The notes under the pieces are model-generated. The model was not told the DNA's origin. It searched no databases and worked only from the letters and a program-made list of their open reading frames with translations. Below, piece by piece: positions 5,752 to 52,118 of a stretch of 64,000 bases of DNA. Positions within the stretch are counted from its first letter, which is position 1. Each line of letters opens with the position of its first letter. Where the stretch lies: NCBI GenBank assembly GCA_963752915.1, contig CAVVZZ010000013.1, positions 24,954-88,953 on the forward strand, read 5' to 3'. The stretch comes from Ignavibacteriota bacterium. GTDB lineage: Bacteria > Bacteroidota > Ignavibacteria > UBA10030 > UBA6906. Made by a program: the position numbers and the translations under genes.

Positions 5752-5795
5752 ATGTGCGGTTGTGCGACGTTGCTTCTCATCATATATTGGCGTTC

Positions 5796-6440
5796 ATGGG
5801 AAAAACAAACTCAATCCGCGTCGCCCTCATCGAAGATGAGAAGGAAGTCCGTCAGGGGCTCTCGTATATTCTCAATCACACCGAAGGATACACCTGCGTC
5901 GGTCAGTATTGCACCTATGAAGAAGCCTTCGACGCTCTTACCGAGCCTCCGGATGTCCTTCTCTCGGATATCGGCCTCCCCGGTCTGTCCGGCGTCGACG
6001 GCGCTCGCGCCTTCAAGGAACGATTTCCCTCCACGGCGATCGTCATGCTCACGGTCTACCGGGATGATGAGAGGATCTTCCGGTCGATATGGGCCGGTGC
6101 GACCGGCTACATCCTCAAGAAAGAGCCCCCGGGCAGGATTCTAGATGCCATCAGGGAGGTCCACGCCGGCGGCGCAAGCATGTCCTCCGAGACCGCGCGA
6201 CAGGTCCTCGAAGCATTCCGGAAATTGATTCCCGACCGTTCTGGGCCGAACGTCCTGACGAAGCGTGAAGAAGAAATCCTGCAGGAGATTATTCAAGGCA
6301 ACAGTTACAAGAGCATCGCCGATCATCTCTTCCTGAGTGTTCACACGGTGCGGTTTCACATTCGAAGCATCTATGAAAAGCTTCATGTTCATTCAAAGTC
6401 CGAAGCTGTCGCCAAAGCTCTGAAGGACCGCATCTTCTAG
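5796..6440 (+). CDS. NarL/LuxR-family response regulator
   Basis: ORF 5754..6440 with the likely ATG at 5796 (MGKTNSIRVALIEDE). Receiver motifs VLLSDIGLPGLSG. C-terminal LuxR helix-turn-helix LTKREEEILQEIIQGNSYKSIADHLFLSVHTVRFHIRSIYEKL. Immediately follows the kinase gene. Confidence 0.9.
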   Translation: MGKTNSIRVALIEDEKEVRQGLSYILNHTEGYTCVGQYCTYEEAFDALTEPPDVLLSDIGLPGLSGVDGARAFKERFPSTAIVMLTVYRDDERIFRSIWAGATGYILKKEPPGRILDAIREVHAGGASMSSETARQVLEAFRKLIPDRSGPNVLTKREEEILQEIIQGNSYKSIADHLFLSVHTVRFHIRSIYEKLHVHSKSEAVAKALKDRIF

Positions 6441-6594
6441 ATCGACCGGGATCCTGACCCACCCGTTTATGCTGCATATGTGCCCCGCCACCTCCACCCC
6501 CGTCGGAAATTCCATCCCTTTGTGCGATTGTCCCCCTGATTCGCGCCGCCTATATTGCTGCGTGTTTGTATAGCCACCATCGGGAGGGGGATTC

Positions 6595-9222
6595 GTGCTC
6601 ACATCACGCGTCTGTATTCTCGGCGTGCTTCTGCTCGGCATCCGGGTCCAGGGTGCATCGCAGGGTCAGGAAACGAACGGCTACCATATCTTCACGATCA
6701 CCGTGAATACGTCGTCTCCCTCCCAGCTTGTCATCGACCGCGGTCGGTTGGCGTGGATTGACAACGACATCAGCAGCGGGTCGCATTTCCTCAAATTCTA
6801 CTCCGGCGCTGACATTCTCACTCTTGATTCCAATCTGACCAGAGCGCCGATCGCCCTCGGTCGCGATCATCTCGTTTGGAACACCTCCGCGGAGGTCGTC
6901 CGCGCCTATGACATCCTCGATGGGAGCACCTCGGTGCTCGGAGATTCCTACAACCCGGATGGCAGTCAACCGGTCGCGGTCGGCGACGGACTCGCGGCGT
7001 ACGCTCGACGGAAAGCGGGCACTGGAACCAGCATTGACCTTCACAATTTTCAGGAGGGGACCGATACGCTGCTCAGCGCTGCGCTCTGGAACACCCAGCC
7101 GTCGATCCATCAGGGTCAGGTCGCATGGGTGGGATCGGATTCAGCAGGCCTGTCGGCGCGTTCCGAGATCTATCTGTTCGACGGTCGGCCTGCTGCGAAG
7201 ATCAGCGGCGGTACACATGCGGTCAACAGTCGCCCGATCCTTCGCGATGGGCAAATTGTCTGGTTCTCCACGGATAGCACGGGCGTAGCGGTAATGCTGT
7301 ACACCGGTGATTCGCTTCTTACCATTGCACGATCAAGCAGCGCGTCGAGCGTCGTGACAGGGTATGATGTAAGTGATGGGATCGCCATTGCGGCGGTCAC
7401 CGACACGGTGACGCTCTCGGGGACGCTTCACGTGTACGATGCGGAACACCGTATCCTGACGATTCTGGCCGACTCGAACGGTATATGGAGTCCGCACGTC
7501 AGCAACGGCCTGGTCGTCTGGCAATCCGGCATCGGCTCCGGGAGGCAGGCGTTAGGTTACGATCTGCGCACCGCAACGACGGAAACCCTCGGCGCGGCGG
7601 AGAACCCTGTGATCGATGAAGATATGGTCGCCTGGACGTTCGGCGATGCGGTGGAACTGAGGCGCCTGGTGTCATACCGGCAGCTTACCACCGACGGGAT
7701 GAACGGATGGGAACAAACGAAATTCAAAACCATCGACAGCAACCGCGTCATCTGGGGGAACTTCGCCAACGATCAGCATATGCGCATGTTCGCCTGGGAC
7801 GGAGCTTCCGCGAACCGGTTGAGTGACTCTGCCGGAACACGGGATCTTGTCATGGCCAACGACGGGTACGCGGTATGGCGCCTGAATGCAGACTCCCTCT
7901 TTTACTACGACTGGGTCCACCCGCCGGTGAAATTTCTTGACTCCGTACAGTCGGAGAATGCATACACGGCGGGGGGTGCGGTCAGCTTCTTCGGGGCGAA
8001 GCTCACCGTTCCTGATCCCGTCAAGTACCCGTGGCTCTATGACATCGAAACGAATCGGCTCACGCAGCTGAGCACAGACAGCAGCAACGCGGGAAACGTT
8101 CTGTGCGATGGCGCCACCGCATGTTGGGAGAATCTCACCACCCAGCGGTTGTTATTCTACGACGGCGCGGTGACGACCACGATCAGCGATTCCGCCATTG
8201 TCGGGGACTACGTGTATCGCCACGGGCTCATCGTCTGGACGCAAATACGAGACGGCGTCGCGCAGGTCTTTGCCTACGACGTTGCGCAAAAGGCCGAGGT
8301 CCAGGTGACCACAGGCGGAACGGACAAGTATCGACCGGTGACCGACGGGACTGCGGTCTTCTGGTTCGAGAATGCCGTATTCAATGTGACGTACATCGAT
8401 GCTGATCTCGTCTATGTGAGTCACCTCGGCGCGACACCCGCCCGAATCCACCACGTGCCTTCACGCAGCATCTTCTGGAAGTGGATGAGCGAAGGGAAAT
8501 TCGCGTGGGTCTCCAACGGCAACGTTGCCGTCTTCGATGGAAACGTCATCAGTGAAATCGCGGAAGGGTCGAGCTTCTTCCTCAACGATGCACACACGGA
8601 CAAAGGGTACGTCGAATGGAGAAGGATGCTCCCTCCGCCCGCCCAGGACAGCGGGAACATCTATCTTGGCGCCCTCGTCCCTCACGTGGCGTTCGATGCA
8701 AAGGATATCACGGGCGTCGCGCCCCTCCCGGTGACGTTCACGAACCGATCATGGGAGGGGGATCGAACATACCTGTGGAATTTCGGGGACGGGACGTCGA
8801 GCACGGAAAAGGACCCGGCCCACACGTATATGCACCCCGGGGTGTACAGCGTCATGCTCACGGTAAGCGGTCTCAGCTCCACCGTTTCTGAAAGAAAATA
8901 CGCCCTTGTCAGGGTGGGCTCTGCGACATCGGTGGCATCGTCACGCATTACCCTCCCCTCCAGGGTTGAGCTCTATCAGAACTATCCGAACCCGTTTAAC
9001 CCCACGACGGGGATCAGGTATCAGCTGTCAGGGAACAGTACCGTACAGATCGTGGTGTACGATATCCTGGGGCGTGAAGTGGCTGTGCTTGTGCACGAGA
9101 AGCAATCAACGGGAACCCACGAAGTACGGTTCGATGGCAGCCGGCTTTCGTCGGGAGTGTATTTCTATGCACTCAGGACCGGAGCGGGACGGATTGTCCG
9201 TTCGATGATTCTCGTGAAGTAG
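6595..9222 (+). CDS. Secreted repeat protein with PKD domain and T9SS C-terminal sorting domain
   Basis: GTG start preceded by GGGAGG. Signal peptide. PKD motif VTFTNRSWEGDRTYLWNFGDGTSSTEKDPAHTYMHPGVYSVMLTV. C-terminal sorting domain (CTD) LYQNYPNPFNPTTGIRYQL...VVYDILGREVAVLV...GVYFYALRTG...MILVK. Confidence 0.8.
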   Translation: MLTSRVCILGVLLLGIRVQGASQGQETNGYHIFTITVNTSSPSQLVIDRGRLAWIDNDISSGSHFLKFYSGADILTLDSNLTRAPIALGRDHLVWNTSAEVVRAYDILDGSTSVLGDSYNPDGSQPVAVGDGLAAYARRKAGTGTSIDLHNFQEGTDTLLSAALWNTQPSIHQGQVAWVGSDSAGLSARSEIYLFDGRPAAKISGGTHAVNSRPILRDGQIVWFSTDSTGVAVMLYTGDSLLTIARSSSASSVVTGYDVSDGIAIAAVTDTVTLSGTLHVYDAEHRILTILADSNGIWSPHVSNGLVVWQSGIGSGRQALGYDLRTATTETLGAAENPVIDEDMVAWTFGDAVELRRLVSYRQLTTDGMNGWEQTKFKTIDSNRVIWGNFANDQHMRMFAWDGASANRLSDSAGTRDLVMANDGYAVWRLNADSLFYYDWVHPPVKFLDSVQSENAYTAGGAVSFFGAKLTVPDPVKYPWLYDIETNRLTQLSTDSSNAGNVLCDGATACWENLTTQRLLFYDGAVTTTISDSAIVGDYVYRHGLIVWTQIRDGVAQVFAYDVAQKAEVQVTTGGTDKYRPVTDGTAVFWFENAVFNVTYIDADLVYVSHLGATPARIHHVPSRSIFWKWMSEGKFAWVSNGNVAVFDGNVISEIAEGSSFFLNDAHTDKGYVEWRRMLPPPAQDSGNIYLGALVPHVAFDAKDITGVAPLPVTFTNRSWEGDRTYLWNFGDGTSSTEKDPAHTYMHPGVYSVMLTVSGLSSTVSERKYALVRVGSATSVASSRITLPSRVELYQNYPNPFNPTTGIRYQLSGNSTVQIVVYDILGREVAVLVHEKQSTGTHEVRFDGSRLSSGVYFYALRTGAGRIVRSMILVK

Positions 9223-9276
9223 TCTGGGCGCCATGATCCATCACGTCCTTTGCAATTGAAGCTCACGAGGAGGCCG

Positions 9277-12200
9277 ATGGCACGTCTTCGACGAATGGTG
9301 CAGATCATGCTCGCCATAGCGTCTGCATCCACGCTGTCCTACGCCCAGACAAACGGCGCCGTCTCACCCACATGGTTCCTTCCTGCCCAAAGGGTTTCCC
9401 GGGACGTTCCAGGTTTACCCGGATGGAGACAGGGCGTGAATTCGCGTTCCGGTCGCGCGACGGCAACGTTGCGATCCTCCCCGTCCTCGCGGCCGCTGGA
9501 AACACTTGTGGTCACCACGGTCGCAGACACGGGGCAAGGGTCTCTGCGTCAGGCCATTCTCATTGCCGATACTCTCCTTGGCGTTGATCTCATCACCTTC
9601 AATATCCCCGGGACCGGCGTTCACACGATTGCCCCGCTCTCGAAGCTCCCAAATATCACAGATCCTTTGCTCATCGACGCGACGTCGCAGCCAGGTTTCA
9701 CCGGAACTCCGCTGATTGTGCTGGACGGCTCCAATATCACCGGTGTCGATCTCCTGGACGTGTTCGCGAACGAGTGCGTGATCAACGGCATGGCGTTCGA
9801 AAGCGTGCGGGCTGGAACCGCCGTGGTTCTGTACGGGGACGGCAATACCATCGTGGGGAGTTATTTCGGTTTGGAACCCACGGGAGCAACGGCTTCAGTC
9901 ATAGACTACAATGGTATCGTCATCTATGGCGCGTTCAACAGGATCGGGGGAACTCAAAGCCAGAACAGAAACTGCTTTGCGGGGACCTCACTGCCAGCCG
10001 TCGCCCTTAGTGGGATTGACGCCCTCGGCAACGTCATCGATGGGAATTATATCGGAACCGATGCATCCGGGGCCGTGAGGGTTGGAACCCAAACCGAGTC
10101 GATTATTCTGGCCAATTGGGCGTCGGGTGATACTATCGGAGGACTCGCCACTGGTGCCGGAAACGTCTGTTCCGGCTCCGCACACGCCTCGGGAATAACC
10201 ATAATCGGACCGGCGTCTGATGACAATGTCATACAGGGAAACCGGATCGGGACGGACACTTACGGGATGGCAGCAATCGGAAATGCCGGGAACGGAATTT
10301 TCGTGAGCGGTGCATATGGCACTGTGATCGGGTCTCTGACCATTTTTGGCGGCAATCTGATTTGTGGGAATGGTGGGACAAAGTATCCGGCGGTGTTTGT
10401 CGACAGCACTGCTTCCCACACGCAGATCCTCGGGAACCGGATCGGCATCGGGTACAACGGTCTGACATCGATTCCAAACTATGAAGGAATCCTTCTCAAC
10501 GGATCCCACGACAACCTTCTAGGAGGAAATGTCATCTCCGGCAATACCCTCCATGGTGTCATCATCCGCAACGCAGGGGCGACTGGAAACACGCTGAAAG
10601 CGAATCTGATCGGTGTCTCCGCCTTCGCCAATGTACCCATCGGGAACAACGGCCATGGGGTTCTGCTCGCCGCATCCGACAACGTGATTGGGGGACCGAA
10701 CCCCGGGGATGCAAATACCATCGCCTTCAATTTCGGTGCGGGGATATCGGTCGACAGCGGGGAACGTAATCTCATCACCCAGAATGAAATTTATTCGAAC
10801 TACGGCCTCGGGATCAATCTTGCCCCGGCCGGGGTGAACCCCAATGATACATTGGACGCGGACACAGGCGCGAACCAGATGCAAAACTACCCCGAGCTCG
10901 ACACACTGAAACGGCACGGGACCTCGATCGATGTCAGTGGCCGGCTTGTCTCCGCACCGGACGGTGTTTACACCGTAGAGTTCTTTGCAGACTCCGGGGA
11001 CGTGTCACACTACGGGCAAGGGCGGGGGTATCTCGGCTCCGCAACGATTCCGACGGGACCATCCGGTGTGGCAAGCTTCAAGGTCACCCTCCCGGCCTCC
11101 ATCTCCCCGCAGGAAGTCGTCACTGCGACCGCCACCGATGCGAACGGCAATACGTCCGAATTTTCCCGGGACATCGGGAGAGACTACGTGGTCACGAATC
11201 CGCCTCGCGGGAAGCTCTGGGTTGTCGGAGATCGGGACACCATCAGGTGGGAATCCTCGGACACAGGCCACGTGCACATTGCATTCAGCTCGGACACAGG
11301 ATATACGTATCACACCATCACGGCAGACACGAGCGGTGCGGCACATGAATTCCCGTGGATCGTGGAGAAGGCCCGTTCGACCCGGTGCAGGATCCGCGTT
11401 ACCTCTGTTGATGACCCGACGATGTCGGGAGAGAGCGAGTTCTTCAAAGTGAAGGGTGTCGAATTGACCCGCTACACCGCCGACAGTTCCTACGAGGCAT
11501 TTGACCCTGCCATCCACGGTTGGAGCTTTGCGAATGCTGCGAATATTATGTGGGCGCCGAAATGGTATGCCCGATTCAACTATGCAACGCGGACCGACCC
11601 CAACACCGCCCTTCCGTATCCCGGAGCGTGGAGCAACGCCCCCATCAACGCCAAAAGTGCGGACTTTCCGGACTGGCCGCTCTATGTCTCAGCGTTTGGC
11701 ACAAACCAGTGTTACATTGCGACCCCCGCCGGATTATCGTATCGCCCGTCCGCCGTGGCCTTCTGGACGGCGCTCAAAGGTTCGTGGGGTGGGTCCTGTT
11801 ATGGGTTCGCGGTCTCAAGCTTGATGGCTTTCGATGACCCTGCGTCGTTCCTCGTCAATGAAACAGAGATGCCTCCGTTCCTGAACCTGTACTCCCTCGC
11901 TGCGGACACAGTCCACCACCTTCAAAATGTCGTGAGCAGAATGTGGATTTACACGGCAGCGCGCATCAACAAAGTCCAGTCCGACACTCACGCGCAGGAT
12001 CCCCTCAGCACCATACTGGACACCCTGCGTGATTCGTTTCTTGGTGATACCCGGGACGACAGGATTATCTCCTTCTGGGATGCAAAGGGCGGTGGGCACA
12101 GCCTTGCTCCCTACAAGATTGAAAAGGATTCGTTACGTCCGAACATCCGGTATCTCTATCTCTATGACTCCAATGTGCCGGGGGGAGAGAATGACCGTGT

Positions 12201-13485
12201 CGTCATGGATATTGTGAACGACACATGGACGTTTGCGCCGCTTGGCTGGGGGAACACGAAACATTTTGTGCTCTCGAGGCCCGTGAGCACGAATCTGGGT
12301 CAGGCCCAATTTCCAAGGGTTAGTCCAGAGGCGGGGCGGCACCTTGCCGCTCTCGCGGGGAACGGCAATCAATTCTCCGTGTACATCCCGGAGGGGGCCT
12401 CCGTCCTCGTGACAGCTCCGAACGGCGGACATATTCAGTATGCCGACTCGATTGAGGCGGATAGCATCCCGGGTGCGAGTCTGATCATTCCGCCCACAGG
12501 AGGTTTCTCCCTGCCGATCGGATTCACCCTACCCGCCGGCAAATACACAGTCCAATTGACTCGGTGCCCGGATTCCACGGGGCGCGTTTTCCTCTTTTCC
12601 GATTCTGCAGTCTACAGCTGGTACCGCACAGGGGAGGATCCACAGCAAATCGATATTGTCAAATACGACGGAGGGTTGACATACGCGAATCCGGGCACTG
12701 GCGACCGGGGCGTCGGCTTTCGATGCATTCTGCCCGAGCAAAACAGAGAACGCGAAGTTGATCTTTCCGGCCTCGATGTCGGCGGAAACGATAGCGTCCG
12801 CATCAGGATCGGCGGGGACGGTTCCTGCGATGTGACGACGCATGGGATGGGGCAATCGTACGACCTGGTGCTGAACAATGTTTCGACCCTCGGGTCGTCC
12901 AGCTTTGCGCACGTTCAGGTTGCCCTTCAGCAGAATTCCACACACCACATACTCCCCGACTGGAGCAACCTGCAGGCAGCGTCGGTCAAGATTCTTGTTG
13001 ATCGCGGGAATACGGGTTCCTTCTCCGATTCCCTTCTGCTGAACAACCAGGCGACTGGTATCGGTGAGCCAGGGAGCAATCCCGGATCGCCAACTGAATT
13101 CATTCTTTTCCAGAACTACCCGAACCCGTTCAATCCGACGACGACTATTCAGTTCGTCGTGGGAGGAGTCGTCGCCCCGAGCGGAGCGTTTCGCAGCGGA
13201 GCCGAAGGGCCAACAACAGCTATCAGTGGATCCGTCCCGCCGAAGGCGGGACGAGACCTCGTCTCGAACTCCGTTCGAGACGGGCAGTGGACAGGGGACA
13301 GTTGGGTGAGTCTGGTTGTGTATGACGTTCTGGGGCGCCAGGTGGCAACGCTGGCAAATGGCCGATATCCAGCGGGGAGATACTCGTTTACCTTCGACGG
13401 AGCAAACCTGGCAAGTGGGGTGTACTTCTATCGCTTGACTGCGGGGTCATTTCCCGCGGTTCGGAAGATGCTCTTAGTTCGTTGA
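9277..13485 (+). CDS. Large secreted parallel beta-helix protein with a possible cysteine-peptidase-like middle domain and an interrupted T9SS CTD
   Basis: ORF 9250..13485. The ATG at 9277 follows AGGAGG (MARLRRMVQIMLAIASASTLSYAQ). Many NxxxGN/GI beta-helix repeats. GSWGGSCYGFAVSS ... GGGHSLAPY ... YDSNVPG. The CTD (FQNYPNPFNPTTTIQF ... VVYDVLGRQVATL ... GVYFYRLTAGS...LLVR) is split by an extra segment of roughly 47 aa. Confidence 0.75.
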   Translation: MARLRRMVQIMLAIASASTLSYAQTNGAVSPTWFLPAQRVSRDVPGLPGWRQGVNSRSGRATATLRSSPSSRPLETLVVTTVADTGQGSLRQAILIADTLLGVDLITFNIPGTGVHTIAPLSKLPNITDPLLIDATSQPGFTGTPLIVLDGSNITGVDLLDVFANECVINGMAFESVRAGTAVVLYGDGNTIVGSYFGLEPTGATASVIDYNGIVIYGAFNRIGGTQSQNRNCFAGTSLPAVALSGIDALGNVIDGNYIGTDASGAVRVGTQTESIILANWASGDTIGGLATGAGNVCSGSAHASGITIIGPASDDNVIQGNRIGTDTYGMAAIGNAGNGIFVSGAYGTVIGSLTIFGGNLICGNGGTKYPAVFVDSTASHTQILGNRIGIGYNGLTSIPNYEGILLNGSHDNLLGGNVISGNTLHGVIIRNAGATGNTLKANLIGVSAFANVPIGNNGHGVLLAASDNVIGGPNPGDANTIAFNFGAGISVDSGERNLITQNEIYSNYGLGINLAPAGVNPNDTLDADTGANQMQNYPELDTLKRHGTSIDVSGRLVSAPDGVYTVEFFADSGDVSHYGQGRGYLGSATIPTGPSGVASFKVTLPASISPQEVVTATATDANGNTSEFSRDIGRDYVVTNPPRGKLWVVGDRDTIRWESSDTGHVHIAFSSDTGYTYHTITADTSGAAHEFPWIVEKARSTRCRIRVTSVDDPTMSGESEFFKVKGVELTRYTADSSYEAFDPAIHGWSFANAANIMWAPKWYARFNYATRTDPNTALPYPGAWSNAPINAKSADFPDWPLYVSAFGTNQCYIATPAGLSYRPSAVAFWTALKGSWGGSCYGFAVSSLMAFDDPASFLVNETEMPPFLNLYSLAADTVHHLQNVVSRMWIYTAARINKVQSDTHAQDPLSTILDTLRDSFLGDTRDDRIISFWDAKGGGHSLAPYKIEKDSLRPNIRYLYLYDSNVPGGENDRVVMDIVNDTWTFAPLGWGNTKHFVLSRPVSTNLGQAQFPRVSPEAGRHLAALAGNGNQFSVYIPEGASVLVTAPNGGHIQYADSIEADSIPGASLIIPPTGGFSLPIGFTLPAGKYTVQLTRCPDSTGRVFLFSDSAVYSWYRTGEDPQQIDIVKYDGGLTYANPGTGDRGVGFRCILPEQNREREVDLSGLDVGGNDSVRIRIGGDGSCDVTTHGMGQSYDLVLNNVSTLGSSSFAHVQVALQQNSTHHILPDWSNLQAASVKILVDRGNTGSFSDSLLLNNQATGIGEPGSNPGSPTEFILFQNYPNPFNPTTTIQFVVGGVVAPSGAFRSGAEGPTTAISGSVPPKAGRDLVSNSVRDGQWTGDSWVSLVVYDVLGRQVATLANGRYPAGRYSFTFDGANLASGVYFYRLTAGSFPAVRKMLLVR
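13233..13282 (+). other. Two adjacent perfect stem-loops inside the extra segment of the CTD coding sequence
   Basis: cgtcccgcc-gaa-ggcgggacg (13233..13253, 9-bp stem). cgtctcgaac-tcc-gttcgagacg (13260..13282, 10-bp stem). An overlapping alternative palindrome is cgagac-ctc-gtctcg. Confidence 0.7.
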
Positions 13486-13496
13486 CGGCAGCACGC

Positions 13497-13536
13497 TTTT
13501 TCTCCCCTTCTCTAAGTCTCCCCGTCTCTCCTTCGG
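13497..13536. repeat. Octamer tandem repeat array (core TCTC/GTCTC)
   Basis: TTTTTCTC CCCTTCTC TAAGTCTC CCCGTCTC TCCTTCGG, starting 12 nt after the stop codon at 13483-13485. Confidence 0.7.
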
Positions 13537-13649
13537 CGGGCAAATATTCCTTCACCTTCTGCGCGAACAGCGTGGCGAGCGGTGTGCACTTCCATCGATT
13601 GACGGCTGGCAGTTTCACAGCGACACGGTCGATGTTGGTCATCAAGTAG
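13530..13649 (+). pseudogene. Degenerate duplicate of the last ~35 codons of a T9SS CTD
   Basis: Translation ...SPSAGKYSFTFCANSVASGVHFHRLTAGSFTATRSMLVIK-stop (TAG 13647-13649). It aligns with the end of the upstream gene, YPAGRYSFTFDGANLASGVYFYRLTAGSFPAVRKMLLVR-stop. There is no start codon or upstream CTD part. Confidence 0.65.
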
Positions 13650-13677
13650 GAACTAACTATTCCGGTCAGCATAGTGT

Positions 13678-15879
13678 ATGAAGACGCTTCTCCTGGTGGT
13701 CGTCGGTGCCGGGCTCTGTGCCTGGTCAAGCCGTGTGACGGCGCAGGCATGGGTTCAAACTAATGGGCCGTATGGCGGGAACATACGCTATTGTGCCGCT
13801 GACAGCGAAGGCACCGCATTTGCCGTTTCCTATCCCGAGTTCGGACCCATTGCCCTCTACCGGTCGACCAACGCAGGGGCGGCTTGGACGCCTGTTGACA
13901 TCGTGGCTCCTGCGACGTTCGCCGGCCCGGTGTTCTGCGCCGGCGGCGGGGTCGTCCTCGCTGGTGCAGCCGACGCAATTCATCAACCCTCCATCGCGCG
14001 TTCCTCCGATAACGGAGTAACCTGGACTTTTGTCTCGAACACAATCCTTCCGTCTGCGTTTGCCGCCGACTCCGTTGGAGGTTTCTACTGCACTTCCTCT
14101 GCCAGCTTCGGACAAACGGGTATTTTTCGCTCGACCGATCGTGGCGTCCACTGGACTTCAATCTCTTCAGATATCTCGATCCTGAGCCTGACATCGGTCG
14201 CTTGTTGGAAGAACGGAGTAATTCTTGTTGGCAGCGATTACTCGACGGCGAACTCCGGAGCGGTGTTTCGTTCGACGGACAACGGGGTGCATTGGGATGA
14301 AGCCCTGTCGAACGCCGGAGGGACGGTCGCGGCGTTGTGCACGACAGACTCGGGGACAATTCTTGCAGGAACGATGGGTGGGGGGATCTTTCGATCGACA
14401 GATGATGGGGATTCGTGGAGTAGTGTCAATGAAGGCCTTCAACGTCCGATGGTAAACTGCCTGGTGGTCTCCAGGAGTGAGGTTGTCTTTGCCGGAACAT
14501 CAGACAGGATCTTCCAGTCGACGAACGACGGCATGACCTGGAACCCCTCCAATTCGGGCGTCGCACACTTCATCATTCAATCAATCGCAACAGAGCCACA
14601 AGGTCTTTTGCTCGCCGGCACCGGCATGACGGTCTATCGCTCGACGGATAGCGGGGGGTCCTGGAACGAATCCGCGACCGGTATTGCCGGCACCTCGTGC
14701 ACCGCAATAACGGCCAACTTGGCCGGGACCGTGATTGTCGGAACAAGCAGCGCGGGAGGAGTGTTTCGATCGACCGATCGTGGCGAGACATGGATATCTG
14801 CAGCTTCGGGCGACCTGGTGAACAAGCGGGTCCGTTGTGTTGGAAGCGGGCAGTCCGCCTCGCTTTTCGTCGGAACAACCGCAGACTCGGGTGGGGTCGC
14901 GATGTACCGTTCAACCGATCAGGGGATGACGTGGGAACCTGTCGGTCCTCACATACCGGGGCTCTCGGCGGTGTGTTTTGCAAACGGGCCGGGAGGGGAA
15001 ATATTGTTCGGAACGTCGTCGGGAGACTCTGCACAAGGACTCTATCGTTCTACGGACAACGGAGGGACGTGGCAGGCGCTCCATACAGGATTGTCCAATG
15101 TGTTGTTTGAAGCTTTGGCGATCACTCCCGCAGGAACAATCTATGCGGGGTCGTATGGAGACGTCATTGTTTCGACCGATAGCGGCACCACCTGGAGTGA
15201 TATGTCCAATGGGCTGGCGTATGCACCGGTGAACTGGTTGGCTTCAGATTCTTCCGGGACGGTCATCGCAGCACAGAATCAATTCGGGGCTTATTTCCTG
15301 TCGGGAGGTCAATGGTTGCTGCGTGATCGCGGAGTGTCGGCATATGACGAGGGGTCAATGCTGTGTGTGATATTTGACAGCGCGGGAAACGAGTACGCCG
15401 GGTCCGAAGGCCACGGCGTTTACACTGGCAGGGGAATCTGGGCGCCGATGAATGCCGGTCTGACGGACTCGACAGTCTTCGCTCTTTGTGCAGGTCCGGG
15501 GAACGTTCTGTATGCCGCCACGGGCTCATCTGGCGTGTTTCGGTATGGCAAGGACACGGCAACGTCGATCGATCGCATTCAAACGTCCTCTCCTACTGAT
15601 TTCCGTCTCGAACAAAACTATCCGAACCCGTTCAATCCGTCGACGAGCATTCGATATACGGTAGCAGGGGACAGGGAACAGGGGACAGGGAACAGTGACG
15701 TTCGGCTGGTGGTCTACGACATGCTCGGAAGGGAGGTGGCGGTGCTTGTAAATGGACCTGAGGCTCAAGGGAGCCACGAAGTCTCGTTCGACGGAAGGAA
15801 GCTCTCAAGCGGAGTTTATTTGTATCGATTGACAGCGGGATCATCTACTGCGGTGCGAAAGATGGTATTGGTCAAGTAA
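13678..15879 (+). CDS. BNR/Asp-box repeat (sialidase/Ycf48-like beta-propeller) protein with T9SS CTD
   Basis: Signal peptide MKTLLLVVVGAGLCAWSSRVTAQA. About ten S-x-D-x-G-x-x-W boxes (STDRGVHW, STDNGVHW, STDDGDSW, STNDGMTW ...). CTD EQNYPNPFNPSTSIRY...VVYDMLGREVAVLV...GVYLYRLTAGS...MVLVK. Confidence 0.85.
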   Translation: MKTLLLVVVGAGLCAWSSRVTAQAWVQTNGPYGGNIRYCAADSEGTAFAVSYPEFGPIALYRSTNAGAAWTPVDIVAPATFAGPVFCAGGGVVLAGAADAIHQPSIARSSDNGVTWTFVSNTILPSAFAADSVGGFYCTSSASFGQTGIFRSTDRGVHWTSISSDISILSLTSVACWKNGVILVGSDYSTANSGAVFRSTDNGVHWDEALSNAGGTVAALCTTDSGTILAGTMGGGIFRSTDDGDSWSSVNEGLQRPMVNCLVVSRSEVVFAGTSDRIFQSTNDGMTWNPSNSGVAHFIIQSIATEPQGLLLAGTGMTVYRSTDSGGSWNESATGIAGTSCTAITANLAGTVIVGTSSAGGVFRSTDRGETWISAASGDLVNKRVRCVGSGQSASLFVGTTADSGGVAMYRSTDQGMTWEPVGPHIPGLSAVCFANGPGGEILFGTSSGDSAQGLYRSTDNGGTWQALHTGLSNVLFEALAITPAGTIYAGSYGDVIVSTDSGTTWSDMSNGLAYAPVNWLASDSSGTVIAAQNQFGAYFLSGGQWLLRDRGVSAYDEGSMLCVIFDSAGNEYAGSEGHGVYTGRGIWAPMNAGLTDSTVFALCAGPGNVLYAATGSSGVFRYGKDTATSIDRIQTSSPTDFRLEQNYPNPFNPSTSIRYTVAGDREQGTGNSDVRLVVYDMLGREVAVLVNGPEAQGSHEVSFDGRKLSSGVYLYRLTAGSSTAVRKMVLVK
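15667..15694 (+). repeat. Four GGGRACA heptamers embedded in frame in CTD coding sequence
   Basis: GGGGACA GGGAACA GGGGACA GGGAACA, encoding ...GDREQGTGN... Confidence 0.8.
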
Positions 15880-15887
15880 ACGTTCAC

Positions 15888-15943
15888 ATCGTCTCCAAGT
15901 CCCAAAGTCTCCAGGTCTCCCCTTCTCCCCATCCCCCCTTCTC
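15888..15943. repeat. Octamer tandem repeat array (7 units, core GTCYC/TCTC)
   Basis: ATCGTCTC CAAGTCCC AAAGTCTC CAGGTCTC CCCTTCTC CCCATCCC CCCTTCTC, between the stop at 15877-15879 and the 3' end of tRNA-Arg. Confidence 0.8.
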
Positions 15944-15948
15944 AGTTG

Positions 15949-16020
15949 TGCGCCCAGAGGGATTTGAACCCCCACTGTCAGTTCCGAAGACTGAAGTGCT
16001 ATCCATTACACCATGGGCGC
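15949..16020 (-). tRNA. tRNA-Arg (anticodon TCG)
   Basis: Minus strand GCGCCCA TG GTGT AATGGATA GCAC T TCAGT CTTCGGA ACTGA CAGT GGGGG TTCAAAT CCCTC TGGGCGC A. It folds by hand into a 72-nt cloverleaf. No encoded CCA. Confidence 0.85.
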
Positions 16021-16426: not shown

Positions 16427-19231
16427 ATGATGAGAATCCCTGGCAGAAATCGGTTTCTAGTCCATCTCATAGTGATCGCGATATTCAGTTGTGCCAGAGC
16501 GTCGACGCAGACGATCGTCGTAACTTCGCTGGACGACTCCGGGCCGGGGACGCTGCGCGAATTAGTGGCGAATGCTGGTGACGGTGCAGTGATCATGTTC
16601 GATCCTACCCTCAAGGGAGAAATAGTACTCGAAACTCGAATTTGGATCGAGCATAACCTGACGATTGTCGGACCTCCATCCAGCTCTTTACAAATCGTCG
16701 GTCTCAACTATATACGCCAGTCAAATTCAGCGCCGCTTCTGGGGATCGACACTTTGAAAACAGTGATATTGCGTCGATTAGTTTTGGTTGGCGGAGCCGA
16801 GGGGACGGTGCCGGGTGGGGGCGGAATCTACAACCGGGGGACTCTCTATCTGGATACGTGCGAAGTCTCTGACTGTTCGCTCTACGGATGGCTGACCCCT
16901 GGATTCACAATGCATGGATCAGGCGTATACAATAGCGGCCTCCTGATTGCGAGCGCAAGTCGGTTCTCCAGAAACACTTTCCAGGGGTTATATAATTCAG
17001 GGTCGGCTCAATTGAAGGATTGCACCTTTTCTGGAAACACGGGCATGGGTGCAGGCATTAACAATGTTGGAACACTCGAGGCGCAAGGATGCGCATTCGC
17101 GGGGAACAGCAACACCGCCATCGACCCGCATGATGGAACGACAATACCGGCGCGCGGCGGCGCAATAAGCAACTCGGGAACGGCTGCGCTTGTCAACTGC
17201 ACCTTGAGCGGTAACTCCGCGTTTGTCGTTGAAGGGATTGCTACAGGCCCCGTCGTAGGCTCGTACTATTACTATGCTCCGGCATACGGAGGCGGGATCT
17301 ATAACAGTGCACTGGGGAAACTGAGCCTCGTCTACTGCACCGTAACGGACAACCGTGCAGACTTTCCCGCGATAGATCACGGGAACGCGTCCGACGGCGG
17401 AGGGATATTCAATGACGGCGGCGAACTGAATCTGCTAAACACAATTGTCGCCCGTAACACCGGGGGAGAACCCGCACGGGACATCGCCGGGCGGACAACG
17501 CTAGCAATTCATTCTCTGATCGGCGAACTCGCCTATCCCGACTCGCTTGTTACCCTTCCTTCAAACAACAATCTCTTCGGCAGTCCGGATCAACCGCTGA
17601 ATCCAATGCTCGACGTCTTCGCCGAACACGGGGGGGAAACTCCGGTATGGTCGTTGGCGAGCGGTAGTCCAGCCATTAATGGAGCACTGTCGGTTGATTC
17701 GGTGACGATTGACCAGCGGGGGTACACGCGGACCATTTCAACCGACATCGGTGCGTATGAGCACGATCCGGCGTTTAGCACCATTCCGCAAACAGTCTCA
17801 TTGATTTCTCCCATCACAAATACCACGATCTCGCCGGATACAAGTATTTTCGTTTGGAGCCGGTCAGTCGGAGCGACGTCGTATCGAATTAGCGTTGCGC
17901 TGGATTCACAGTTTGCTTCGGTGGTGGAGGATCTTAGCGGGATTGCGAACCGATCCATACAGACACCTGCGCTTCCCGGGGATGCCCGGTTGTACTGGCG
18001 GGTCAGAGGGACGAGCTCGTTGGGTGACGGCCAATGGAGCGGCGTCGGACCATTTCTTACTGGGCACAAGCTGTTTATTCCTGACTCGATTCAGATTTTA
18101 GGTCCAGACAGCGCGGTGTATCACACGATGTACATAACCTTCCGGTGGCGAACGGCCAGGAATGCTGAGTCGTATCACGTTCGGCTACAACGGTACGATA
18201 GTTATGGAATTCTACAGACAGTGTCTGAAGTCCCGCAATGTCCGGACACAGCAATCACGCTCGGAGTGGCAGTAAGCAATTGGCAGTACCTCCTGACTGT
18301 CTATGGAGCAAACGCAGAAGCGACAGGCAGGACAACGACACTCACAGTTCGGACTGCCGACATTCCGCCACCTGTACCACCGTCGCTGCAGTTTCCGCCT
18401 GACAGCGCACTCGTCCCCACTGCAGTAATCCTGCGCTGGGCTGACTCCCGGCAGAATACCTATGACTCAGGGTTTGAGTTGCAGGCCGTCACCGACACCG
18501 TTGGCGCTGGCACGTATCATATGTGGTCAGGGCATGACCCGGAGTGCGACCCGGGCAGCCGATATTTCTCATTCCCCGTCGGCCAGACATTCTTCTGGAG
18601 GGTCAGGACGAAGGTCGAAGGAAGATCGGGCAACTACTCGCTCTGGAGACGCTTCACTGTCAGTACGGAACAGCTTCAGCCGCCTCGGCTCCTTGCCCCT
18701 CTCAGTGGTACAGAAGCCCTTCAACTGCCGATTACGTTGACCTGGAGTCCTCAGCCTCAGGCGCGCTCGTTCCACGTACAGGTATCAGCTGCAGCCTCAT
18801 TCGATTCACTGGTATTCGATAGAGTTCTTGATGGGTCACAAACGGGATGTACGGTGAGCAACCTCCGCTCGTCCGGAGTGTACTATTGGAAAGTCGTGGT
18901 AACGAGCTCATCCGGCACGGTTGAAGAATCCGCGATTGCGAATTTTGCGATCGAGGGTCTCTCGCCGGCTCAAGTGACACTGGAGCAGAACTATCCGAAC
19001 CCGTTCAATCCGACGACGAGGATACTTTACAGCGTACCTGGCGCAATGCATGTTACACTGAAGCTGTACAACACTCTGGGGGAGGAAGTGCGCACGCTCG
19101 TGAATCAGGATGTCGGCGCGGGGTGGCATGAGGTGGTCGTCGACGCAAAGGGGTTGGCAAGCGGGTTGTATTTCTACAGGCTGAAGACCCCAGGTTTTGT
19201 CCAGACGAGGAGACTGATTTGTGTGCGGTGA
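16427..19231 (+). CDS. Secreted beta-helix (polymorphic-membrane-protein-like GGxIxN repeats) protein with Ig/FN3-like repeats and T9SS CTD
   Basis: Signal peptide. Repeats GGGIYNRG, GGAISNSG, GGGIYNSA, GGGIFNDG. DQRGYTRTISTDIGAYE motif at the end of the helix domain. CTD EQNYPNPFNPTTRILYS...LYNTLGEEVRTLV...GLYFYRLKT...LICVR. Confidence 0.8.
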   Translation: MMRIPGRNRFLVHLIVIAIFSCARASTQTIVVTSLDDSGPGTLRELVANAGDGAVIMFDPTLKGEIVLETRIWIEHNLTIVGPPSSSLQIVGLNYIRQSNSAPLLGIDTLKTVILRRLVLVGGAEGTVPGGGGIYNRGTLYLDTCEVSDCSLYGWLTPGFTMHGSGVYNSGLLIASASRFSRNTFQGLYNSGSAQLKDCTFSGNTGMGAGINNVGTLEAQGCAFAGNSNTAIDPHDGTTIPARGGAISNSGTAALVNCTLSGNSAFVVEGIATGPVVGSYYYYAPAYGGGIYNSALGKLSLVYCTVTDNRADFPAIDHGNASDGGGIFNDGGELNLLNTIVARNTGGEPARDIAGRTTLAIHSLIGELAYPDSLVTLPSNNNLFGSPDQPLNPMLDVFAEHGGETPVWSLASGSPAINGALSVDSVTIDQRGYTRTISTDIGAYEHDPAFSTIPQTVSLISPITNTTISPDTSIFVWSRSVGATSYRISVALDSQFASVVEDLSGIANRSIQTPALPGDARLYWRVRGTSSLGDGQWSGVGPFLTGHKLFIPDSIQILGPDSAVYHTMYITFRWRTARNAESYHVRLQRYDSYGILQTVSEVPQCPDTAITLGVAVSNWQYLLTVYGANAEATGRTTTLTVRTADIPPPVPPSLQFPPDSALVPTAVILRWADSRQNTYDSGFELQAVTDTVGAGTYHMWSGHDPECDPGSRYFSFPVGQTFFWRVRTKVEGRSGNYSLWRRFTVSTEQLQPPRLLAPLSGTEALQLPITLTWSPQPQARSFHVQVSAAASFDSLVFDRVLDGSQTGCTVSNLRSSGVYYWKVVVTSSSGTVEESAIANFAIEGLSPAQVTLEQNYPNPFNPTTRILYSVPGAMHVTLKLYNTLGEEVRTLVNQDVGAGWHEVVVDAKGLASGLYFYRLKTPGFVQTRRLICVR

Positions 19232-19407
19232 GCTGGCAATTGCTAGTGGCGCAAATCACGAGACTCGCTTCACGCCTTCCCTCGGGTAATGGCCGAACCA
19301 ATAAAAGATGGCAGATAGACTTTGCGGTTTGCTCAGATCGGCACACGTTGGTTCCGGAAGACGCTATCTGCAGTTGCCTTGGAAGCTCCTTCAGGCAAGA
19401 TCACCCT

Positions 19408-21504
19408 ATGAAATCAGTTCGACGTTTCTTCTTTGCGGGACTCTTGGTAGCAACCATGATACCCACCACGTATGCCCAGTGGAAACAGACCGGTGGTCCC
19501 CCGGGAGGTGCAGTCATTTGTTTTGCCGTCTCGGGCACTAACCTCATCGCGGGAACTGGTAGCGGCGTATTTCTTTCGACAAACAATGGCACAAATTGGA
19601 CTGCCAGCAATGCGGGGTTGGCGAACCCTTATGTCCGTTCCCTTGTCGCCTCGGGCGAATATCTGTTTGCTGGGATTGGCGACGATGGCGTGTTTCGTTC
19701 GACCGATAACGGGACGAGCTGGACGGCTGTCAATTCAGGGTTGACTTATAGGATTGTGTCCGCGCTTGCCGTCTGCGGCACAAACCTCCTTGCGGGCACA
19801 GATCTCGGTGTGTTCGTTTCGACCAACAACGGCACAAGCTGGGCCGTAACGGAGTTGACGAATATGTCCGTCTCGTCTTTTGCGGTCTCTGGAGCATATC
19901 TCTTTGCCGGGGCTGGCGGCGGCGTGTTTGTTTCCACCGACAACGGGACACGCTGAACCGATACAGGTGGGCTAACGCACACTGGCGTCTTCGCTCTTGC
20001 GGTCTCGAACACAAATCTCTTTGCGGCCATAGATGGTGGCGGCATGATTGTTTCGAGTAACGACGGCGCGAGCTGGGCTAACGCGGGGTTGTCTGGCACT
20101 TATGTTCAATCTCTTGCGGTCTCGGGCACAAGTCTCTTTGCGGGGACTTGGCTTGGCGGGGTTTTTCTTTCGACCGATAGTGGCACTAGCTGGACAGCGG
20201 TCAATGAAGGCTTGCCGCACGTCGATTACAATATCGTATATGCCCTGGCAGTATCCGGGACAAACCTCTTCGCCGGGAATGGCGATGACGGTGTGTTTCG
20301 TTCGACCAACAATGGCACTACCTGGACTGCCGTCAATACTGGGCTGGCGAACACGGATGTCTTGTCTCTTGCCGTATCGGGAGCAAATCTTTTCGCAGGG
20401 ACGATGTGGGACGGCTTGTTTCTTTCGACCAACAATGGCACCAGCTGGTCAGCCGTAAATGAGGGCTTGCTGACTATCCACTATGATTGGACCTATGCCT
20501 TAGCCGTCTCGGGCACAAGTCTCTTCGCGGGCACAGTTGAGAGCGGCGTGTTTGTTTCGACCAACAACGGCACAACCTGGACAAATACAGGCTTGAATGG
20601 CTTTGGGGTCCTGTCTTTTGCCATGTTGGACACAAATTTCTTTGCCGCGACGAATCTCGGCGGCGTGTTTCTTTCCACAAATGGTGGCGCGAGCTGGGAT
20701 GCTGTCAACACGGGTCTGCACTCCTCTCTTGTCATGGCACTAGCCGTTTCGGGCACAAATCTCTTCGCGGCGAGCGGCGGCGTATATCTATCGACCAATA
20801 ATGGCACTAGCTGGACATCCGCCAATACAGGATTGCCAAATAGTACCGTTTTGTCTCTTGCCGTCTCGGGCTCAAACCTCTTTGCGGGGACCCAGCGAGA
20901 CGGTGTGTATCGCTCGACCGACAATGGTTCAAGCTGGACAGCCGTTAACGCGGGGTTGTCAGACCTTTACAACAATTCTGTCTACACTTTCGCTGTATCG
21001 GGGACGCATCTATTCGCCGGGACTGTCGATGGTGTACATCATTCGACCAACAATGGCGCGACCTGGACAGCCGTCAGCGCTGGGTTGACCAACACACCGG
21101 TTCTTGTCCTTGTAGCCTCGGGTGAAAATCTCTTTGCTGGAACTGCTGGCGGAGGCGTCTGGAGACGTCCCTTGTCGGAAATGATTGCTTCGGTGGAGAT
21201 GACATCGGCTCTTCTCCCGACTGACTTCAATCTCGATCAGAACTACCCCAACCCGTTCAATCCGACAACGAGCATTCGATATACGGTAGCAGGGAACAGG
21301 GAACAGGGGACAAGGAACAGTGACGTTCGGCTGGTGGTCTACGACATGCTCGGAAGAGAAGTGGCGGTGCTTGTGAACGGACGCGAAGCCCCCGGGAGCT
21401 ACGAAGTCTCTTTCGACGGCAGCAAGTTGTCAAGCGGTGTCTATTTGTATCGATTGACAGCGGGATCATCCGCGGCAGTGCGGAAGATGATTCTCGTCAA
21501 GTAG
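19408..21504 (+). pseudogene. BNR-like repeat protein with T9SS CTD, interrupted by one in-frame TGA (19954-19956)
   Basis: ORFs 19219..19956 and 20044..21504 are in the same frame. The likely start is the ATG at 19408 (MKSVRRFFFAGLLVATMIPTTYAQ). The repeat unit is GVF.STNNGTSWT..N.GL...V.SLAVSG.NLFAGT. The TGA falls where the repeat has its conserved Trp codon (NGTR-stop-TDTG versus NGTTWTNTG). Confidence 0.65.
21292..21319 (+). repeat. Four GGGRACA-type heptamers embedded in frame in CTD coding sequence
   Basis: GGGAACA GGGAACA GGGGACA AGGAACA, encoding ...GNREQGTRN... Confidence 0.8.
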
Positions 21505-21513
21505 AAGTTCGTT

Positions 21514-21541
21514 GGTAACAGTGAACAGTGAACAGTAAAGA
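21514..21541. repeat. Heptamer tandem repeat
   Basis: GGTAACA GTGAACA GTGAACA GTAAAGA, starting 10 nt after the stop at 21502-21504. Confidence 0.7.
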
Positions 21542-28159: not shown

Positions 28160-28192
28160 AATGAAGCGTATAACCAAGCCCGGTCTCTGACG

Positions 28193-28220
28193 CCTGAAGC
28201 CTGAACCCCGAAGCCTGAAA
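28193..28220. repeat. Heptamer tandem repeat
   Basis: CCTGAAG CCTGAAC CCCGAAG CCTGAAA. Confidence 0.75.
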
Positions 28221-30352: not shown

Positions 30353-30426
30353 GCGCCTGTAGCTCAATTGGATAGAGTGCCTGACTACGGATCAGACGGT
30401 TGGGGGTTCGAGTCCCTCCAGGCGCA
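30353..30426 (+). tRNA. tRNA-Arg (anticodon ACG)
   Basis: GCGCCTG TA GCTC AATTGGATA GAGT G CCTGA CTACGGA TCAGA CGGTT GGGGG TTCGAGT CCCTC CAGGCGC A. 74 nt, with one C-A mismatch at the top of the anticodon stem. Confidence 0.85.
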
Positions 30427-30460
30427 CAACGGACCGATTGACAATAGTCTATGGTCAATG

Positions 30461-30496: not shown

Positions 30497-30514
30497 GAGT
30501 CCCTCCAGGCGCAC
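30497..30514 (+). repeat. Duplicate of the 3' end of tRNA-Arg(ACG)
   Basis: gagtccctccaggcgcac is identical to 30410..30427 (the T-arm/acceptor 3' half of the tRNA plus one flanking base). Confidence 0.8.
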
Positions 30515-30598
30515 GAAGATTGAAAATCGAAGATTGAAGATCGAGGATTGGTAATGAATCAACAATCCTCGATCCTCAATCCTCCATCTTCAATTAGT
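30515..30598. repeat. Twelve-unit heptamer array with dyad symmetry
   Basis: GAAGATT GAAAATC GAAGATT GAAGATC GAGGATT GGTAATG AATCAAC AATCCTC GATCCTC AATCCTC CATCTTC AATTAGT. The right half is the approximate reverse complement of the left half. Confidence 0.8.
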
Positions 30599-51835: not shown

Positions 51836-51921
51836 AGTGGGATCCTGCACGGTGAGCGGTGGGGTGGAATATATAGCTAGGGAATCAAGAGGGAAGATGC
51901 AAGAGAAGCAAGGAGGGGGCA

Positions 51922-51992
51922 GGGGACAGGGAACAGGGGACAGGGAACAGGGAACAGGGGACAGGCCCGGGACAGGCAGGGGACAGGGCAGA
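51922..51992. repeat. GGGRACA heptamer array
   Basis: GGGGACA GGGAACA GGGGACA GGGAACA GGGAACA GGGGACA GGCCCGG GACAGGC AGGGGAC AGGGCAG. Contains the 19-mer ggggacaggcccgggacag (51957..51975), which recurs at 52067..52085. Confidence 0.85.
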
Positions 51993-52011
51993 CATTGACC
52001 TGAGGTCAAAT

Positions 52012-52047
52012 TCTAGATTTTAGAGTTCAGATTTTAGATTAGATTAG
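52012..52047. repeat. AT-rich heptamer array
   Basis: TCTAGAT TTTAGAG TTCAGAT TTTAGAT TAGATTA. Confidence 0.75.
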
Positions 52048-52078
52048 TCCGGCCGTGGTGAAGACTGGGGACAGGCCC

Positions 52079-52118
52079 GGGACAGTACAGTAAACAGTAG
52101 ACAGTTGACAGTGAGAGA
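52079..52118. repeat. NNNACAG heptamer array
   Basis: GGGACAG TACAG TAAACAG TAGACAG TTGACAG TGAGAGA. Confidence 0.75.

Follow-up and report, generated by a model that had tools for sequence, protein, structure and literature searches.

The question raised by this locus is how a repeat of seven nucleotides comes to lie, in frame, within the sorting domain of an exported protein. The locus belongs to a 64,000-nt stretch of an Ignavibacteriota genome (assembly GCA_963752915.1, contig CAVVZZ010000013.1, positions 24,954 to 88,953, forward strand), hereafter the window, in which coordinates are counted from the first letter. At 15667-15694 (+), gene 3 carries GGGGACA GGGAACA GGGGACA GGGAACA, four units of the heptamer GGGRACA, in the C-terminal sorting domain (CTD) of a type IX secretion system (T9SS) cargo protein. 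A preliminary description of this DNA had offered two readings of the tract: a slipped-strand switch acting on secretion, or a surface loop that tolerates repeats. The structural and comparative data favor the latter, through the spectrum of loop lengths, the presence of other heptamers at the same site, and the phasing of repeats in the closest clade. The tract is probably a heptamer microsatellite that evolves slowly and is tolerated because the CTD loop is permissive; unit counts would be filtered to 1 + 3n, and gene conversion between CTDs would spread the array.

The features on which this proposal centers are:

13678..15879 (+): gene 3, a 733-residue BNR/sortilin-like (F510_1955-like) T9SS cargo protein, with a type A CTD at ~15616-15879
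15667..15694 (+): gene 3 tract, read in frame as GDREQGTGN, inside the 14-residue beta1-beta2 loop of the CTD
20044..21504 (+): gene 5, a 486-residue BNR-repeat T9SS cargo protein with a type A CTD
21292..21319 (+): the paralogous gene 5 tract, read in frame as GNREQGTRN, in the CTD loop

If this proposal is correct, the history of the tract likely involves: a heptanucleotide microsatellite of CAGNNNN / GGGNNCA type, abundant in the intergenic DNA of the genome; its fixation in frame at the beta1-beta2 hairpin loop, where the T9SS type A CTD would tolerate a change of length; slow turnover of the array, presumably generated and altered by slippage or intra-array conversion; and copying of the array from one cargo gene to another, whether through gene conversion or through the exchange of whole CTD modules. 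The hydrophilic, glycine-rich insert GDREQGT would then be a passenger of the DNA repeat, and is presumably neutral.

Position of the tract in the fold and in the reading frame

The location of the tract was assessed by modeling the C-terminal 100 residues of gene 3 with AlphaFold2, on an alignment of 105 CTDs. The model contains seven strands, with a mean predicted local distance difference test score (pLDDT) of 83.7 and a predicted template modeling score (pTM) of 0.75. Here, beta1 spans residues 22-29 (STSIRYTV), beta2 spans residues 39-47 (NSDVRLVVY), and the repeat-encoded AGDREQGTG (30-38) is the connecting loop. Modeling had been put forward as a check on a loop location, and in this model the tract does sit in the beta1-beta2 hairpin loop. 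The loop block has a mean pLDDT of ~67, as compared to at least 87 in the adjoining blocks, and is the lowest within the CTD proper; the N-terminal linker ahead of NYPNPFNP is lower than the loop (62-63). Foldseek matches to the model are Ig-like sandwiches, including the T9SS CTDs of mirolase (8qb1_A, TMt 0.57) and of NucA in a T9SS complex (8glk_D, TMt 0.66). A profile search of PDB sequences returns weak matches to 8glj_D and to the RgpB CTD 5hfs.

As 7 is not a multiple of 3, only three-unit steps (21 nt, 7 residues) leave the CTD intact. Surviving alleles would therefore have 1, 4 or 7 units, corresponding to loops of 7, 14 or 21 residues. Unit-by-unit computation on the gene 3 tract agrees with the earlier statement that going from one to four units keeps the frame and that a single-unit change truncates the CTD. 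The frame is kept with 1, 4 or 7 units; with 2 or 5 units, a TGA is met at once in the CAGTGAC 3' of the tract; with 3 or 6 units, a stop follows after 20 codons. The T9SS export signal comprises the last two CTD strands, ~22 residues (PMC5445135), and a frameshift past beta1 would therefore remove it.

This arithmetic is what a contingency locus would require. In such a locus, one-unit slippage would shift the frame after beta1 and reversibly toggle the cargo between a secreted and a retained (periplasmic or degraded) form. The geometry fits: alleles of 2, 3, 5 or 6 units truncate at the tract or no more than 20 codons past it, the export signal lies beyond the point of truncation, and the targets are surface or secreted proteins of a multigene family, as in classical phasomes. 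The tract itself fits less well. Tandem Repeats Finder (TRF) describes it as period 7 in 4.4 copies with 87% match, or as period 14 with 100% match but in only 2.2 copies. Because G and A alternate between units, it never has three identical heptamers in a row; the longest stretch of identical units is one in gene 3 and two in gene 5, where the tract is even less perfect. The PhasomeIt screen for units of 6-9 nt sets a permissive threshold of at least three repeats, and proven heptamer loci have 3-26 copies (PMC5953494), with proven loci usually well above three. With just four alternating units, the gene 3 tract falls below this cut-off of at least three identical units.

Loop lengths and repeat content across CTDs

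Gene 3 is the third of five consecutive + strand open reading frames (ORFs), here genes 1 to 5 (6595-9222, 9250-13485, 13678-15879, 16427-19231 and 20044-21504), each of which ends in a T9SS type A CTD. TIGR04183 is matched above its curated cut-off in all five cargo proteins, and PF18962 in four. Over residues 648-730 of 733, the gene 3 CTD reaches 36.7 bits with TIGR04183, for which the cut-off is 23, and 33.6 bits with PF18962, for which it is 27; the gene 5 CTD reaches 38.9 and 37.3 bits, respectively. The passenger domains of the five proteins are PKD, NosD/beta-helix and BNR/sortilin-like; a hybrid sensor kinase is encoded upstream. No T9SS core genes are present within the 64-kb window. 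The CTDs of the other three genes contain:

9011..9038 (+): gene 1 CTD array, the CAG-phased heptamers GGATCAG GTATCAG CTGTCAG GGAACAG, encoding beta1 and a canonical 7-residue loop
13165..13310 (+): gene 2 CTD insert (ORF 9250-13485), ~43 residues (129 nt), in frame, at the beta1-beta2 loop
18989..19231 (+): gene 4 CTD (ORF 16427-19231), a canonical 7-residue loop without heptamer phasing, which serves as an internal control

The preliminary description had counted GGGRACA units at four homologous sites. Sequence and TRF bear out the four units of gene 3. The gene 5 site (21292-21319, +) reads GGGAACA GGGAACA GGGGACA AGGAACA, so that three of the four units claimed there are perfect and the fourth is not. 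Of the two units claimed for gene 2 (13287-13300), the second, GGGGACA, holds, but the first is GTGGACA and does not match GGGRACA; a degenerate ACGGGCA stands just before it. The single GGGAACA of gene 1 (9031-9037) is present as described, but it is the last of four phased heptamers. The claim of a shared position survives at all four sites, each of which lies in frame between NYPNPFNP...IRY/IQF (beta1) and V.L.VYD.LGR (beta2), ahead of the VVYD.LGR strand; the peptides also read as stated (AGDREQGTGNSD, AGNREQGTRNSD, SGNST). GGGRACA occurs 45 times in the window, as compared to 20.9 +/- 4.5 in dinucleotide-preserving shuffles.

Analysis of other CTDs places length variation at the same point. 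The loop has 7 residues in 125 of 155 CTDs, drawn from the window and from 80 Ignavibacteriota/Bacteroidota/Chlorobiota loci (fetched loci carry L numbers below), and every length difference in the wider Ignavibacteriota/Bacteroidota sample falls at the beta1-beta2 loop. Among the 120 best homologues of the gene 3 CTD, a sample skewed towards query-like loops, the loop has 7 residues in 32, 14 in 37 and 20-21 in five, with others of up to 33 residues. The commonest 14-residue loop peptides follow G-x-R-[DGE]-Q-G-x-G, which corresponds to GGGNNCA read through three frames. At L205, seven GGGNNCA units encode a 21-residue loop, and this matches the predicted in-frame 7-unit allele. Unrelated heptamers also occupy the site: AGCAGGT in seven copies at L204 and TCAGANN in five to six copies at L203. 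The ORFs concerned (L203 307-711, L204 1501-1917) are of 134-138 residues, scarcely more than a CTD with a heptamer-encoded loop, and their upstream neighbors lie on the opposite strand. Such ORFs could encode CTD proteins that stand alone, or could be remnants.

The closest clade consists of the window, L201, L202, L206 and L207, all of ~57% GC. In 13 of its 15 CTDs, the stretch between NPFNP and beta2 contains three or more CAG triplets spaced exactly 7 nt apart. Nine have five CAG, and in these (NNNNCAG)x5 encodes beta1 together with a loop of canonical length (for example, KTVISGQWTVDS). The lag-7 autocorrelation of canonical Ignavibacteriota CTDs is a little elevated (0.33 versus 0.20-0.27), but it is confounded by homology and so is not relied on. 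A metagenome scan with the pattern TTCAATCC..CAGGGNNCAGGGNNCAG, aimed at CTD tracts, returned 124 matches, of which 12 are CTDs and most others are tRNA-Thr(GGT)/tRNA-Gly(TCC) spacers of soil bacteria. Nine or ten of the 12 tract-bearing CTDs have four units. In the remaining two or three, the array occupies a beta1/loop segment of another size, with L093/L200 (one shared sequence) having the array at canonical length and L162 a longer loop. On the sequences compared, the T9SS CTD loop appears to be a general sink for repeat DNA, far beyond the four sites of the window.

Could the loop peptide itself be the object of selection? A glycine-rich, hydrophilic loop of 14 residues might be favored at the protein level, with the DNA period a by-product of a 21-nt in-frame duplication. 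The refuting condition attached to the switch in the preliminary description was of this kind. Consistent with such a process, G-x-R-x-Q-G-x-G loops of 14 residues are common in the homologues and the length is a multiple of 21 nt. However, a 21-nt duplication predicts a period of 21, and the observed period is 7 or 14. Moreover, every Arg codon is AGG and every Gln codon is CAG, as follows from the heptamer; unrelated heptamers with unrelated peptides fill the same loop; and GGGRACA also builds an intergenic array. Protein-level selection alone is therefore a very improbable account of the tract.

The gene 2 insert extends the range of what the loop can contain. It includes a segment resembling repetitive extragenic palindromes (REP), GCCCCGAGCGGAGC...CGAAGGGCC, which can also be written GCCCCGAGCGGAGC GTTTCGC AGCGGAGCCGAAGGGCC. 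The insert also has two perfect hairpins (13233-13253 and 13260-13282, with stems of 9 bp and 10 bp and loops of 3 nt), and the 3' end of the insert consists of the heptamers ACGGGCA GTGGACA GGGGACA. The insert pulls the PF18962 score of this CTD under the cut-off (22 versus 27 bits). Neither the window nor any of the fetched loci contains a further copy. Peptide modules like those of the insert (VVAPSG..VEGP, SGRDLVS..GRDGQ) are seen again in L207 and in the CTD loops of other organisms, and other long loop inserts are likewise encoded by hairpins rather than heptamers (CCCCTCCCGGGAGGGG, GTCATTGCGAG..GCAATC, GCCCTGAGCGGAGTCGAAGGGC).

Turnover of the tract and exchange of CTDs

Comparison with relatives addresses how the tract changes. 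Taxon labels of these relatives (Bacteroidota, Ignavibacteriota, KSB1, Chlorobiaceae) are the depositors' own. The genome-contig scan gave no close orthologue of gene 3, its best match being 32% identical. L208 (GCA_035506075.1, labeled Bacteroidota) contains a gene 3 orthologue with 64% protein identity and a DNA divergence of ~30%; across the passenger 55-74% of the DNA is identical, and across the CTD 76-81%. Orthologue comparison had been suggested as a means of finding copy-number variation, and here it finds none: at the same place, L208 has GGGGTCA GGAGTCA GGGTTCA GGCGTCA, which is again four units. Position 5 of the unit is T in all four L208 units and A in all four window units. Copy number is thus conserved while the units have changed in concert, and this requires past unit turnover or conversion. 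L201 retains four decayed A-type units in the CTD of a GH10 xylanase.

L206 is a closer relative with a syntenic cluster (DPP-IV 87% identical, gene 3 orthologue 77% identical). Its positions 3257-12181 correspond to 6595-15879 of the window, with sensor kinase, response regulator, PKD, NosD and BNR cargo genes followed by tRNA-Arg. All three L206 cargo orthologues nonetheless have a different CTD class (TTVISGQWT.., encoded by (NNNNCAG)x5), whereas the more distant L208 retains the class of the window. The class of CTD therefore does not follow the phylogeny of the passengers, and this implies that cargo genes exchange CTD modules.

Within the window, the DNA of genes 3 and 5 can be aligned solely across the CTD. 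An 89-nt block (15643..15731 (+) against 21268-21356) has two differences, both within the tract, as compared to ~22% of sites in its flanks (Fisher p = 1.8e-5). This block is probably a recent gene-conversion patch that moved the tract between the two CTDs, as judged from the distribution of differences.

Several observations concern the ground between these genes. A tRNA-Arg(TCG) lies on the minus strand at 15948-16020, and genes 4 and 5 (16427-21504) lie beyond it. The syntenic L206 locus has neither gene, which points either to insertion beside the tRNA in the window or to loss in the relative. From the gene 3 stop to this tRNA, 15891-15943 is filled with C/T-rich repeats of 8-nt and 16-nt period (GTCTCCAA, TCTCCCCT), the TCTCCCC.. 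portion of which is conserved in L206 and L208.

The phased CAGGG/CAG array could instead be kept for a function in DNA or mRNA. A G-quadruplex (G4) or an array of protein-binding sites might cause transcription or translation to pause where the CTD begins; alternatively, the array might be a recombination signal for CTD cassettes. The gene 3 tract is a canonical four-G-tract motif, for which ViennaRNA gives -17.6 kcal/mol with G4 energies and -8.2 without. In addition, 13/15 clade CTDs hold the CAG phase despite variation at the remaining four positions, CTD class does not track passenger phylogeny (L206 as compared to L208), and the conversion patch is centered on the tract. On the other hand, the gene 5 tract has three G-tracts only and no predicted G4, quadruplex motifs in the window number 4 as compared to 3.5 in shuffles, and many loop arrays (ACAGTGN, TCAGAAT, AGCAGGT) are unable to form a G4. 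Gene 4 and most Ignavibacteriota CTDs have no array, and both the binding protein and the pausing are hypothetical. Such a signal is an unlikely reason for the persistence of the tract.

If the tract were a switch, tracts of other lengths would be expected to be found among populations or relatives. No such length variant has been seen in the paralogue, L201 or L208. Public reads of this organism exist as Logan contigs from soil metagenomes. None was detected in contigs from four soil runs compared over the three arrays, where the depth of 2-4x makes minor alleles undetectable; one soil contig covers 21232-21353 without a gap. A scan for broken CTDs covered 149 CTDs with an intact beta2-to-end module, from all fetched DNA. 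In 144 of these, the CTD is in frame with NPFNP, and no CTD (0/149) is broken by gain or loss of a unit. The disrupted CTDs reflect a 1-nt homopolymer indel and nonsense codons, in metagenome-assembled genomes (MAGs) derived from Nanopore reads. The CTD at L072 has a 1-nt deletion in the G-run of a hairpin insert (Nanopore-derived MAG), and that at L106 is broken by two 1-nt indels, both outside the tract. Two CTD-only ORFs that overlap upstream genes, P0003 and P0108, were considered as tract breaks; for L201 this is rejected, since the frame is broken before the CTD and not at the tract. Both assemblies (L201, L202) are Nanopore-based.

L207, also a Nanopore-derived MAG, has CTDs that are interrupted inside heptamer units. 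Three of the four CTDs of its syntenic cluster are disrupted (5265-5520, 9466-9700 and 11660-11960): by an in-frame TAG within a CAGTAGA unit; by a TGA in CAGTGAA together with indels; and by a 1-nt frameshift late in the domain. Genuine pseudogenes, unit variants with stop codons and consensus errors of Nanopore data are each a possible cause. One possibility would be that, in this clade, the CTD start is a hypermutable cassette that stochastically switches the secretion of individual cargo proteins, through slippage or homogenized stop units (CAGTAGA/CAGTGAA), and also promotes CTD module exchange; we consider this improbable.

These data bear on the contingency locus in both directions. In its favor, the concerted difference between orthologues and the 7-unit allele indicate that units are gained and lost over evolutionary time, and the L207 CTDs are interrupted within heptamer units. 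Against it, copy number is four alike in the paralogue, L201, L208 and 9-10/12 metagenomic CTDs; the units have diverged through point substitution, the signature of an old, stable tract; 144/149 CTDs are in frame, with none disrupted by a unit change; and the soil contigs from four samples show no length variant, at a mere 2-4x. Of the switch proposed in the preliminary description, the geometry stands, and the mechanism is at odds with a short, imperfect tract, its conserved copy number and the lack of CTDs broken by unit change. A switch at this site is improbable. If it did exist, contingency loci, familiar from host-adapted pathogens and from gene expression, would be extended to soil bacteria and to the control of secretion, giving a phasome that acts on secretion competence in a free-living, uncultured soil bacterium.

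The permissive-loop microsatellite has its own difficulties. The concerted A/T contrast between orthologous tracts means that the array is not inert, and some gain or loss of units must occur. The CAGGG core is conserved over three reading frames and could have a function at the nucleic-acid level. Whether there was a single insertion or several is only weakly tested by a neighbor-joining tree (21 state changes versus 29.8 in shuffles, over 74 columns), and the homologue sample is skewed, as noted above. In this proposal, CTDs with 14-residue loops would presumably remain T9SS-competent.

Intergenic arrays and known repeat systems

The intergenic arrays place the CTD tracts in a wider heptamer family. 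With a TRF score of at least 38, nine of the 11 tandem arrays in the window have a period of 7 or 14, as compared to a chance level of 0.2 in dinucleotide shuffles. Seven of these nine are intergenic, and the only two coding ones are the two CTD tracts. The window thus contains many arrays, far over chance and mainly intergenic, as expected of a heptamer family. The intergenic arrays include:

51914..51965 (+): GGGRACA in 7.4 copies, 76-128 nt upstream of serA (50636-51838, minus strand)
52010..52112 (+): ATTTTAG in 4.4 copies and ACAGTAG in 3.7 copies, just past the GGGRACA array near serA
21517..21536 (+): AACAGTG in 2.9 copies, beginning 13 nt past the gene 5 stop
28187..28219 (+): CTGAAGC in 4.7 copies
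30514..30594 (+): an inverted heptamer pair, GAAGATT in five copies and CAATCCT in 4.6 copies, able to form a hairpin, downstream of tRNA-Arg(ACG)

The first of these confirms that the heptamer upstream of serA is identical to that of the CTD tracts. Comparable arrays occur in L202 (ATTTTAG and its inverse), L084 (CACTGTT), L093 and L207. In L207 (11955-11999), a GGGRACA array (GGGGACAAGGGACAGGGGACAGGGAACAG) followed by AACAGT units lies right behind the stop of a CTD gene; its unit is that of the in-frame tract of the window.

Other arrays in this family are associated with tRNA genes. The 3' end of tRNA-Arg(ACG) (30353-30427) is duplicated (GAGTCCCTCCAGGCGCA at 30410 and 30497), and a 16-nt direct repeat at 30461 and 30700 surrounds the inverted heptamer arrays. 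Downstream of the same tRNA, L206 has three tandem copies of a ~330-bp repeat, and every copy ends with the tRNA 3' end and inverted TTGTCAN/NTGACAA heptamers. The repeats of this region resemble scars of integration or repeat units linked to the tRNA. In many contigs from peat and soil (L081-L200; for example, L081 789-849 and L087 2651-2710), the tRNA-Thr(GGT)/tRNA-Gly(TCC) spacer is packed with GGGNNCA arrays. This spacer belongs to a Thr-Tyr-Thr-Gly tRNA cluster, and its arrays often have an inverted partner (translated as ..RDQGSGIRDQ.. and then ..LIPDP*SLTPD..).

If the tract is a tolerated microsatellite, the T9SS CTD has a single highly permissive site that can absorb from 7 to more than 40 extra residues of arbitrary, repeat-encoded sequence. 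This has a use in annotation, as the gene 2 CTD with its 43-residue insert falls short of the PF18962 cut-off, and the permissive loop would also be useful for engineering T9SS tags. The tract would add a clear case of non-triplet microsatellites that last in coding DNA under a filter of multiples of three units, with concerted unit evolution. It also draws attention to a clade whose large family of secreted proteins is shaped by heptamer arrays and REP-like hairpins. The literature was searched for repeats and for phase variation in T9SS CTDs, and no account of repeat arrays in CTD loops was found.

As compared to simple-sequence-repeat (SSR) contingency loci (Neisseria opa CTCTT; the heptanucleotide CATTTCT, PMC5953494), the window tract shares a non-triplet unit within the ORF of a surface or secreted multigene-family protein, and a frame that shifts with a one-unit change. 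It differs in having only four imperfect units, with a copy number conserved across paralogues and diverged orthologues, and in lying near the 3' end, where a frameshift would hit the sorting signal rather than translation of the mature protein. In profile score, C-terminal place and seven-strand Ig-like sandwich, the domain resembles other T9SS type A CTDs (TIGR04183 / PF18962; RgpB and PorZ structures, PMC5445135). Unlike the usual type A CTD, its beta1-beta2 loop is doubled by repeat DNA.

Cyanobacterial short tandemly repeated repetitive (STRR) sequences are heptanucleotide repeat families, and the window units, to our knowledge, equal no STRR1-3 unit. Rickettsia palindromic elements (PMC10969869) provide a second parallel, being intergenic-type repeats found in frame at surface sites compatible with the fold, and the gene 2 insert is the closest match to them. 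In contrast, the focal tract is a microsatellite and not a palindromic mobile element, without terminal repeats or target-site duplication, and the gene 2 insert has no other copy in the window.

Heptanucleotide units are described as the most abundant class of long simple-sequence repeats (LSSRs) in many prokaryotes (Mrazek et al. 2007, as cited in PMC4679880). Arrays of one such unit, TAACTGA, are found in Beggiatoaceae, Cyanobacteria and Bacteroidetes, and intragenic heptamer arrays persist at the protein periphery (PMC4679880, section 15). None of the window units (GGGRACA, AACAGTG, ACAGTAG, ATTTTAG, CTGAAGC, GAAGATT) is TAACTGA (PMC4679880). Like these LSSR and TAACTGA arrays (PMC4679880), those of the window are many, short and mostly intergenic, with several units per genome and few in ORFs. 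They differ from them in their CAGNNNN / GGGNNCA units, in the repeated in-frame occupation of one structural site of one domain, and in encoding beta1 and a canonical-length loop in most CTDs of the clade.

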